41,497 nucleotides of DNA from a virus, in the UHGV virus genome UHGV-0033333. One strand, given 5' to 3'. This document shows, in pieces, positions 2,065-2,463 of this stretch. The stretch's first letter is position 1, and every line of letters begins with the position of its first letter. The notes below the pieces were generated by a model. That model was given only the letters and a program-made list of their open reading frames with translations, made no database searches and was not told the DNA's origin. The translations under genes and the position numbers were made by a program.

Positions 2065-2463
2065 ATGAAACAGGTACATATATTCCTGATCACGTCAGCG
2101 AAATCACCGGGAAGGCAGAAAGAAGCCTGGTACCGGTACATACTGGTGTGTGACGGTAAGACTCTGGATCAGTGGGAATATGTAAAGGGTATTTCCGGAA
2201 ACCGGCTTATCATGGCATGCGCCATTGCGTCACTGAAAAGAATGACAAAACCGGCCATGATAACGATCCACACAGACAGTTATTACCTGACCAGCGGTCA
2301 TGGGAAACTGGCCAGATGGAAAGATGATGGGTGGAAGCGCCAGAACAAAAAAGAAGTGAAAAATGCAGACCTGTGGCAGCAGCTGGAAGCACTTATGAGA
2401 CCCCACGCAGTCCGCTTCAAAGTGGAGCCTATGGAAATGTATATGGAAAACCCGCCGCGCTGA
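2065..2463 (+). CDS. RNase H-like fold protein, probably catalytically inactive
   Basis: Aligns to E. coli RNase HI: MKQVHIF vs MLKQVEIF, and WKDDGWKRQNKKEVKNADLWQQL vs [24 protein letters not shown]10 and E48 are replaced and the H124/D134 tail is missing; only D70 (HTDS) is kept. Confidence 0.55.
   Translation: MKQVHIFLITSAKSPGRQKEAWYRYILVCDGKTLDQWEYVKGISGNRLIMACAIASLKRMTKPAMITIHTDSYYLTSGHGKLARWKDDGWKRQNKKEVKNADLWQQLEALMRPHAVRFKVEPMEMYMENPPR

Follow-up and report, generated by a model that had tools for sequence, protein, structure and literature searches.

The UHGV virus genome UHGV-0033333, analysed as one strand of 41,497 nucleotides (nt; hereafter the window), encodes a small ribonuclease H (RNase H)-like protein at positions 2065–2463, directly behind the gene for a rolling-circle replication initiator (Rep) of the HUH type. 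The 41.5-kb window has the gene content of a temperate, siphovirus-like phage: terminase, integrase, repressors and an excisionase-like helix-turn-helix (HTH) protein are recognizable, and an open reading frame (ORF) of 2107 amino acids (aa) occupies the tape-measure position. The 132-aa RNase H-like protein is a homologue of RNase HI in which, judging by alignments and a predicted structure, the active site has been lost; the gene is nevertheless maintained by purifying selection. The genes, sites and residues on which the argument turns are as follows.

1297–2064, + strand: HUH rolling-circle Rep (PF23343), with the HUH motif H123-I-H125 and the tyrosine motif AAY169MTK.
2053–2058, + strand: Shine–Dalgarno sequence AGGAGG of the RNase H-like gene, within the last codons of rep and 6 nt before the ATG.
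2065–2463, + strand: RNase HI-like protein, predicted to be catalytically degenerate; 132 aa, isoelectric point (pI) 9.8; assigned from homology, a structure model, alignments and the ratio of nonsynonymous to synonymous substitution rates (dN/dS).
2089–2094, + strand: codons I9-T10 at the end of strand β1, replacing catalytic D10 (FLITS versus FTDGS); the column holds I/Y/V/T/E in relatives.
2209–2211, + strand: codon I49 in helix αA, replacing catalytic E48 (NRLIMA versus NRMELMA); the column holds V/A/I/T in 49 of 55 Rep-linked relatives.
2275–2277, + strand: codon D71 (HTDS), the D70 counterpart and sole catalytic carboxylate left; the column holds D/E/N/A/G in relatives.
2305–2376, + strand: basic protrusion (handle) with N100 and W104, residues 81–104, KLARWKDDGWKRQNKKEVKNADLW; W85 in 23/23, W104 in 23/23 and N100 in 21/23 sequences.

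The homology to RNase HI is unambiguous and far beyond chance, both by sequence comparison and by modelling. The protein matches Pfam PF00075 with 51.5 bits (E=1.6e-13; gathering score 25.8) and PHROG 531, 'RNase H', with E=5e-15, and phmmer aligns its residues 2–119 with the RNase HI entries of Escherichia coli and Thermus thermophilus in the PDB (E=5e-15 to 1e-12). An AlphaFold2 (AF2) model built from 22 family sequences has a predicted local distance difference test score (pLDDT) of 91.3 and a predicted template modelling score (pTM) of 0.87. The best Foldseek matches of this model are E. coli RNase HI structures throughout (E∼1e-14, TM 0.81–0.85). Up to strand β5 each predicted secondary-structure element of the model has its counterpart in RNase HI; after β5 a short low-confidence tail follows. 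The first-pass annotation of this DNA, made from the letters alone, had recognized the likeness to RNase HI, handle motif included; family profiles, PDB matches and the model with its Foldseek matches all bear it out. The structural comparison which that annotation had proposed as a check returned the RNase HI fold as far as β5 and no helix αE, and no alignment places an acidic residue of the window protein at D10 or E48.

E. coli RnhA and T. thermophilus RNase H present the same order of elements (β1–3, αA, β4, αB, handle, αD, β5) at 30–35% identity. Common to the phage protein and bacterial RNase HI are the handle (W..GWK...K.VKN.DLW), T43, N100 and the core residues Y22, Y73, W85, W104 and H114. 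By contrast, D10, E48, H124, D134 and helix αE are absent from the phage protein, which is also phage-borne and tied to a rep gene. The NCBIfam equivalog for ribonuclease HI (NF001236) is not reached (72.5 bits against a trusted cut-off of 160). By homology the protein is a member of the RNase H domain superfamily; by its aligned catalytic residues it does not qualify as an RNase HI.

The catalytic positions were read from three independent alignment types (phmmer, MAFFT and a single-sequence hidden Markov model), all of which agree. D10 is replaced by I9, with T10 next to it, and E48 by I49, and D70 corresponds to D71. H124, D134 and helix αE have no counterpart because the chain ends 12 residues after β5. 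These are the losses that had been listed from the letters, with D70 as the one survivor. The survivor is indeed there in the window protein, but it is not a fixed feature of close relatives: the equivalent of D71 is Asn at three loci (L017, L018 and L028), Ala at a fourth (L019) and Gly in phage phiCs5676-1. Because N, A or G can take its place, the role of D71 is probably structural. In the wider alignment the near-invariant positions are fold-core residues common with true RNase HI and nothing else, so that a replacement active site is not visible. As aligned, the 132-aa protein is without a canonical RNase H active site.

Four of five catalytic residues lost and a truncated C terminus is what a pseudogene would show, and the gene could in principle be the decaying, functionless remnant of a once-active phage RNase H gene. 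A search of ∼5.8 billion proteins for close homologues speaks against this. It returned 45 homologous clusters at 43–94% identity and, apart from a handful of truncated or frameshifted members, ∼123–135 aa in length; the intact aligned close homologues carry identical catalytic substitutions and the same C-terminal truncation. Wherever dS could be measured, pairwise dN/dS lies with few exceptions between 0.05 and 0.2; where loci encode an identical RNase H-like protein, they differ at synonymous sites only. The gene is maintained under purifying selection and is not decaying. The selection data refute the remnant reading, to which we leave next to no probability; an intact ORF of near-constant length, a conserved Shine–Dalgarno sequence, a fold predicted with high confidence and the presence of the gene in 77 of 79 Rep loci (described below) count against it as well. 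That the protein is non-catalytic, as first proposed, is the reading favoured by the missing active site, the low dN/dS and the intact handle.

A wider profile search, covering 1.84 billion representatives, added ∼70 short (115–170 aa) cluster representatives, with the Rep context verified for a few of them only. Here the D10 column holds E, Y, V, I or F and the E48 column E, V, A or I; the D70 column is mostly D or E, and D134 never occurs. Only 3 sequences in this sample of 70 are acidic at all of positions 10, 48 and 70. The verified Rep-linked set comprises 55 proteins of 120–205 aa with pI 5.3–9.8. Their D10 column is E in 16, I in 9, S in 7, Y in 6 and V in 5, and their E48 column V in 26, T in 9, A in 7, I in 4 and E in 3; W85 is retained in 50/55, W104 in 53/55 and N100 in 40/55. 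On these counts, the D10, E48 and D134 positions are unconstrained across the Rep-linked superfamily and the core of the RNase HI fold is kept.

Longer Rep-linked relatives (L037, L038, L039 and many of L050–L125) end in a C-terminal helix of the form G-x-H-x-Y-S-x-W-L-x-x-E-M. Its His falls at the H124 position, and E is often found at the D10 position (IYIETS). By this comparison the window's clade is the most reduced form among the Rep-linked relatives. The longer proteins also lend some substance to the idea of a nuclease with a non-canonical site, made up for example of D71 with E121, H69 and H114: with E often at D10, D/E at D70 and the C-terminal G-x-H...E helix, a partial metal site may persist in some of them, and none of H69, D71, H114 and E121 varies among the 22 closest sequences (alignment A2). 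However, both residues that should hold the two metals are hydrophobic in the window protein (I9, I49). Outside the closest clade, Rep-linked relatives do not conserve H69, D71 and E121, and H114 belongs to the core of every RNase HI. Acidic residues also rarely coincide at positions 10, 48 and 70 among the short relatives. On these grounds we consider a nuclease very unlikely.

The handle has fared differently from the catalytic site. The motif RWKDDGWKRQNKKEVKNADLWQQLEAL aligns with the handle of E. coli RNase HI and is identical to it at 16 of 27 positions. In the window's clade, positions 86, 91 and 99 are K/R in 17–20 of 23 sequences, position 43 is T or S in 22 of 23, and position 90 is W or F. 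Across handle and phosphate pocket, W85, K86, W90, K91, K99, N100 and T/S43 are conserved and W81 and R41 are not, with two of the three phosphate-pocket positions kept. RNase H1 uses this pocket, together with the basic protrusion, to hold and select the DNA strand (PMC4132731). Proteins of the window's clade are strongly basic, with pI 9.1–9.8 and a net charge of +5 to +12; that of E. coli RNase HI is +1.9.

The second line of evidence is genomic position. Rep matches PF23343 and PHROG 3584 (E=1.5e-46), and its residues H123, H125, Y169 and K172 are invariant in the Reps compared. Its stop codon (TAA, 2062–2064) and the ATG of the RNase H-like gene (2065) abut on the same strand and in the same frame, with a 0-nt gap. 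The first-pass annotation had placed the gene directly after rep with overlapping stop and start codons; the adjacency holds in the window and in most of the loci described next, with the Shine–Dalgarno sequence set in Rep's last codons, but in the window the codons do not overlap. The box before the start, caGGAGGAttt, is conserved in most of 23 loci, and the Shine–Dalgarno sequence is stronger than that of rep itself. Because this strong ribosome-binding site of its own sits inside the last codons of rep, we propose that the RNase H-like protein is made together with Rep from the same transcript. A read-through fusion of the two proteins was considered and rejected, as the gap elsewhere is −7, −4, 0, +1, +2, +3 or +4 nt, in mixed frames. 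The junction itself, with the ...RRI stop inside caGGAGGAttt, has the appearance of a recombination point.

The pairing is near-obligate. In all 34 of the first loci that have upstream sequence, Rep ends 0–3 nt before the RNase H-like start, and the pair recurs in the distant longer relatives L037, L038 and L039 and in the isolated phage phiCs5676-1. An unbiased sample of IMG/VR, 80 loci found through Rep alone and 79 of them evaluable, has an RNase H-like ORF downstream of Rep in 77/79. About 66 of those 77 ORFs start −7 to +4 nt from the Rep stop; in ∼10 loci (L057, L061, L063, L065–L068, L081, L108) 160–446 nt lie between the two genes. In two very abundant Rep lineages the downstream proteins are RNase H-like by profile comparison only (hhalign probability 97%).

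A non-catalytic role is the best reading of the protein, because a canonical active site is missing and yet the gene is under purifying selection with its handle intact. From sequence and modelling, we suggest that it is an RNase HI-derived, nucleic-acid-binding accessory factor of the phage rolling-circle replication module, a proposal to which we give about an even chance of being right. An RNase HI derivative would have been retained as an accessory protein of that module; metal-ion catalysis would have been lost, and the fold, the basic protrusion and part of the phosphate pocket would grip the DNA strand of a duplex. The protein would then bind but not cut a nucleic-acid intermediate formed at, or close to, the origin just upstream of rep, the candidate ligands being an RNA:DNA hybrid, an R-loop, a primer or a DNA structure. 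Binding would aid Rep-dependent initiation or the priming of the complementary strand. Protection of R-loops or primers by the RNase H-like protein, which had been raised from the letters alone, is a plausible possibility.

Several observations weigh against this proposal. The RNA 2′-OH-reading side chains of RNase H1, which we take from the Nowotny structures to be N16, N44, N45 and E48, are mostly replaced in the phage proteins (N16 by K/R, N44 by G, N45 by H, E48 by I/V), and specificity for RNA:DNA hybrids is therefore doubtful. Since handle and pocket residues are kept while these positions are mostly replaced, the DNA-gripping half of the interface is, by alignment, better preserved than the RNA-reading half. 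Moreover, a sister clade (L041:4814-5251, L044:4764-5264, L048, L053 and others) occupies the same position behind Rep with acidic proteins of 145–166 aa and pI 5.3–6.3, which have lost most of the basic handle residues and bear an acidic C-terminal tail; the function of the superfamily as a whole may therefore not be charge-driven nucleic-acid binding. Rep can work without the partner, because two loci (L056 and L105) have no RNase H-like ORF within ∼2.9 kb downstream of Rep and Butyrivibrio phage Arawn, whose Rep is 32% identical, has no partner gene. No natural Rep–RNase H fusion occurs among 120 listed Rep homologues (PF23343 only, 212–320 aa), pairwise identities of Rep and partner correlate poorly (r=0.37 in a mirror-tree comparison), and the AF2 input alignment is shallow, at 22 sequences. 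Our caution over the nucleic-acid-binding proposal rests chiefly on the sister clade being acidic and on the changes at RNA-reading positions.

The acidic clade is also an argument for a protein–protein adaptor or regulator. The fold would then be a scaffold that binds Rep (perhaps at its C-terminal GYYI...YRRYT...RRI) or a host factor such as the single-stranded DNA-binding protein (SSB), PcrA or the clamp, and that tunes or targets Rep without touching nucleic acid. A scaffold suits acidic partners with decayed handles at the same position better than a DNA binder does; the gene sits obligately next to rep and is co-expressed with it, and the family-wide invariants are core residues only. 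E. coli RNase HI itself binds the C-terminal tail of SSB. The way in which Reps and partners are combined is less favourable to an adaptor. Reps only 36% identical to that of the window carry partners 54–56% identical to the window protein, so that the same RNase H-like clade serves very different Reps, whereas Reps 70–72% identical carry acidic partners only 20% identical. Given the weak correlation of identities, the pair has, by these comparisons, been shuffled by recombination at the conserved junction and is not co-evolving. Such shuffling makes a lineage-specific interface with Rep less likely and favours a generic ligand or a surface that is conserved among Reps. The same weak mirror-tree correlation and the lack of fusions among the listed Reps count against an adaptor, and the window's clade conserves under selection a handle, a pocket and a positive charge that a pure scaffold does not need. 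We regard an adaptor as possible but doubtful.

Upstream of rep, between positions 1100 and 1296, two features stand out.

1263–1289, + strand: nick-site-like conserved motif and candidate double-strand origin, ACTTGATTAAGATATTAAAGTTAGGAC, 8–34 nt before the rep ATG.
1100–1198, − strand: promoter and intrinsic terminator of a predicted small RNA of ∼60–75 nt, adjoining the origin and transcribed away from rep.

The motif ACTTGATTAAGATATTAAAG at 1263–1289 lies directly upstream of rep, is conserved and resembles the pC194/phiX174 nick region; the pC194 origin sequence used for comparison is that in PMC7072734. Its core, CTTGAT(A/T)A, lies 26–33 nt before the rep ATG in the window, and a looser form, C[TC][TC]GAT[ATC]A, is found upstream of Rep in 70/70 further IMG/VR loci and in phage Arawn. 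From its sequence and position the motif is likely the double-strand origin. The small-RNA promoter on the − strand consists of a −35 element TTGACG (1198–1193), a 17-nt spacer and a TG-extended −10 element TATCAT ending at 1170. The terminator (1134–1109, followed by a T run) has stems that vary between loci yet stay paired. A relaxed scan found this arrangement of promoter and terminator in 57/70 Rep loci against 12/206 control segments, and a strict scan in 26/70 against 0/70. Neither the small RNA nor the intergenic regions matched Rfam in a scan of positions 900–2800. A TAGCGT at 1190–1195, entertained as the CS-6 element of an ssoA-type origin, was dropped because it is conserved in close loci only.

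On the + strand, positions 1100–1296 are strongly structured (fold z=−5.75). The stretch 1197–1228 (+), between the small-RNA region and rep, contains a 14-bp hairpin (AAGAGATTACAGGA/TCCTGTAATTTCTT) with a T run behind it. This layout, in which a divergent small RNA and its terminator are followed by a terminator-like hairpin before rep, recalls the countertranscript attenuation of rep in pT181/pIP501-type plasmids.

The predicted small RNA gives the nucleic-acid-binding proposal a more specific form, in which the protein would be a natural dead RNase H acting as an anti-RNase H. It would clamp an RNA:DNA hybrid on the origin side, possibly that of the conserved ∼60–75-nt divergent small RNA paired to the Rep-nicked strand, and shield it from host RNases H; the R-loop or primer would then open the origin for the single-stranded DNA-specific HUH Rep or prime the complementary strand. 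We judge this specific form unlikely. A possible functional analogue is the catalytically dead RNase H1 of the laboratory (for example human D210N), an R-loop trap that binds and stabilizes hybrids without cleaving them. That protein was made by a single engineered mutation and retains every RNA-reading residue, whereas the phage protein is changed at four catalytic and several 2′-OH-reading positions and has lost αE, which leaves hybrid specificity uncertain.

The laboratory design, in which substrate-binding elements are kept without catalysis, equally suggests a host-directed decoy or dominant negative. Such a protein would compete with host RNases H or their recognition factors for hybrids or partners, and so keep R-loops and primers alive or blunt host defence. 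A Shine–Dalgarno sequence stronger than that of rep would suit a decoy, as would the conserved small-RNA gene next to the origin. But a strict position behind Rep in more than 100 loci points to the replicon, and the RNA-reading residues are changed. We consider a decoy quite improbable.

Downstream of the RNase H-like gene is a 206-nt non-coding stretch with several inverted repeats (region 2458–2669). It includes two direct repeats of CGCTGAAAGAAATCAA (2458–2481 and 2529–2552, spaced 71 nt) and, in 2458–2669, blocks conserved in divergent loci: AAAAGTGGATAAAAA...AAAGACAC and ACAAATTTT..TGTCCGCGA. As a structured single-strand origin, 2464–2669 is not convincing, with fold z-scores of only −1.8 and −2.3. 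The genes that follow, for a ∼165-aa protein, a PcfJ protein and a DUF3850 fusion, are frequent but not constant across loci. The mechanical ORF at 2604–3161 (+) begins with TTG at 2604; an AGGGAG box and alignment with other loci suggest ATG 2670 (MFEKFGEM...) as the real start, and the protein matches no family except for a weak PcfK hint. Two proteins are encoded at 3158–6538 (+), one of 705 aa with a PcfJ domain and Cys-rich zinc-ribbon-like motifs, the other of 414 aa with a C-terminal DUF3850/ASCH-like RNA-binding domain; they are found in the same operon in many loci though not in all.

RNase H folds that have outlived their catalysis are familiar from elsewhere. The connection (tether) domain of retroviral reverse transcriptase (RT) and the RNase H-like domain of Prp8 are degenerate RNase H folds reused as non-catalytic modules. 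Like the phage protein, they represent a carboxylate-less RNase H fold kept as a nucleic-acid-contacting or structural module; they differ in being domains of large eukaryotic or retroviral polyproteins, whereas the phage protein is a free-standing chain of 132 aa beside an HUH Rep. Our searches also matched proteins of ∼300–740 aa with 2–4 tandem RNase HI domains (P0048, P0061, P0062, P0064, P0070, P0073 and ∼60 further matches), typically one intact DEDHD domain with the others degenerate. These are unrelated to the phage module; judging by their sequences, they too may use dead RNase H domains for binding.

There is also a bacterial precedent. The Bacillus subtilis RNase HI homologue YpdQ (NP_390082), of the 'Group A' found in Bacillales/Lactobacillales, has neither RNase H nor other nuclease activity (PMC1950709, PMC9719913). 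It too is a short Firmicutes RNase HI homologue, a precedent for inactive RNase HI copies that persist. Group A proteins are reported to be without the basic protrusion (PMC1950709), however, whereas the phage family keeps its handle and is set apart by that published description; Group A was also described from bacterial genome sequences, and the phage family is Rep-linked. In the literature on inactive RNase H in phages and rolling-circle systems, on pseudoenzymes and on phiCs5676-1, we found no account of a degenerate RNase HI family coupled to Rep. Inactive RNase HI homologues were thus already known; a Rep-coupled, handle-keeping phage family appears to be undescribed.

As a replicon, the module resembles the pC194/phiX174 type, with an HUH Rep that has a single Tyr motif and CTTGAT(A/T)A just upstream of rep. 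To our knowledge, no classical rolling-circle replicon has an RNase H-like partner gene. Classical replicons differ also in that the replicon here serves a 41-kb temperate tailed phage. Among the plasmids of PLSDB we found no family member; only the true rnhA of SSU5-like phage-plasmids matched, at 35% identity. A near-identity search of INPHARED found no close phage.

The related elements reside in Ruminococcus, Blautia and other Lachnospiraceae, and in Clostridium scindens by way of phage phiCs5676-1. A very common group of prophages of the human and animal gut has this pair of genes, Rep and RNase H-like, at the centre of its replication module: at least 519 such Rep loci are present in IMG/VR, and a single Rep cluster turns up in 368 index blocks. 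The 15 window ORFs scanned include no recognizable helicase, primase, polymerase or SSB. Because no helicase, primase or polymerase seems to be carried, the phage may bring little more than these two genes to its own replication. An RNase HI that has shed catalysis but not the handle that grips DNA illustrates how an enzyme can naturally turn into a binder, and it bears on the question of how large double-stranded DNA phages with a plasmid-like HUH Rep open their origins and prime the second strand. If the protein does bind hybrids, it could serve as a compact natural R-loop probe; if it shields an origin-side hybrid from host RNases H, rolling-circle replication would include a protein-stabilized R-loop step that has not yet been described.

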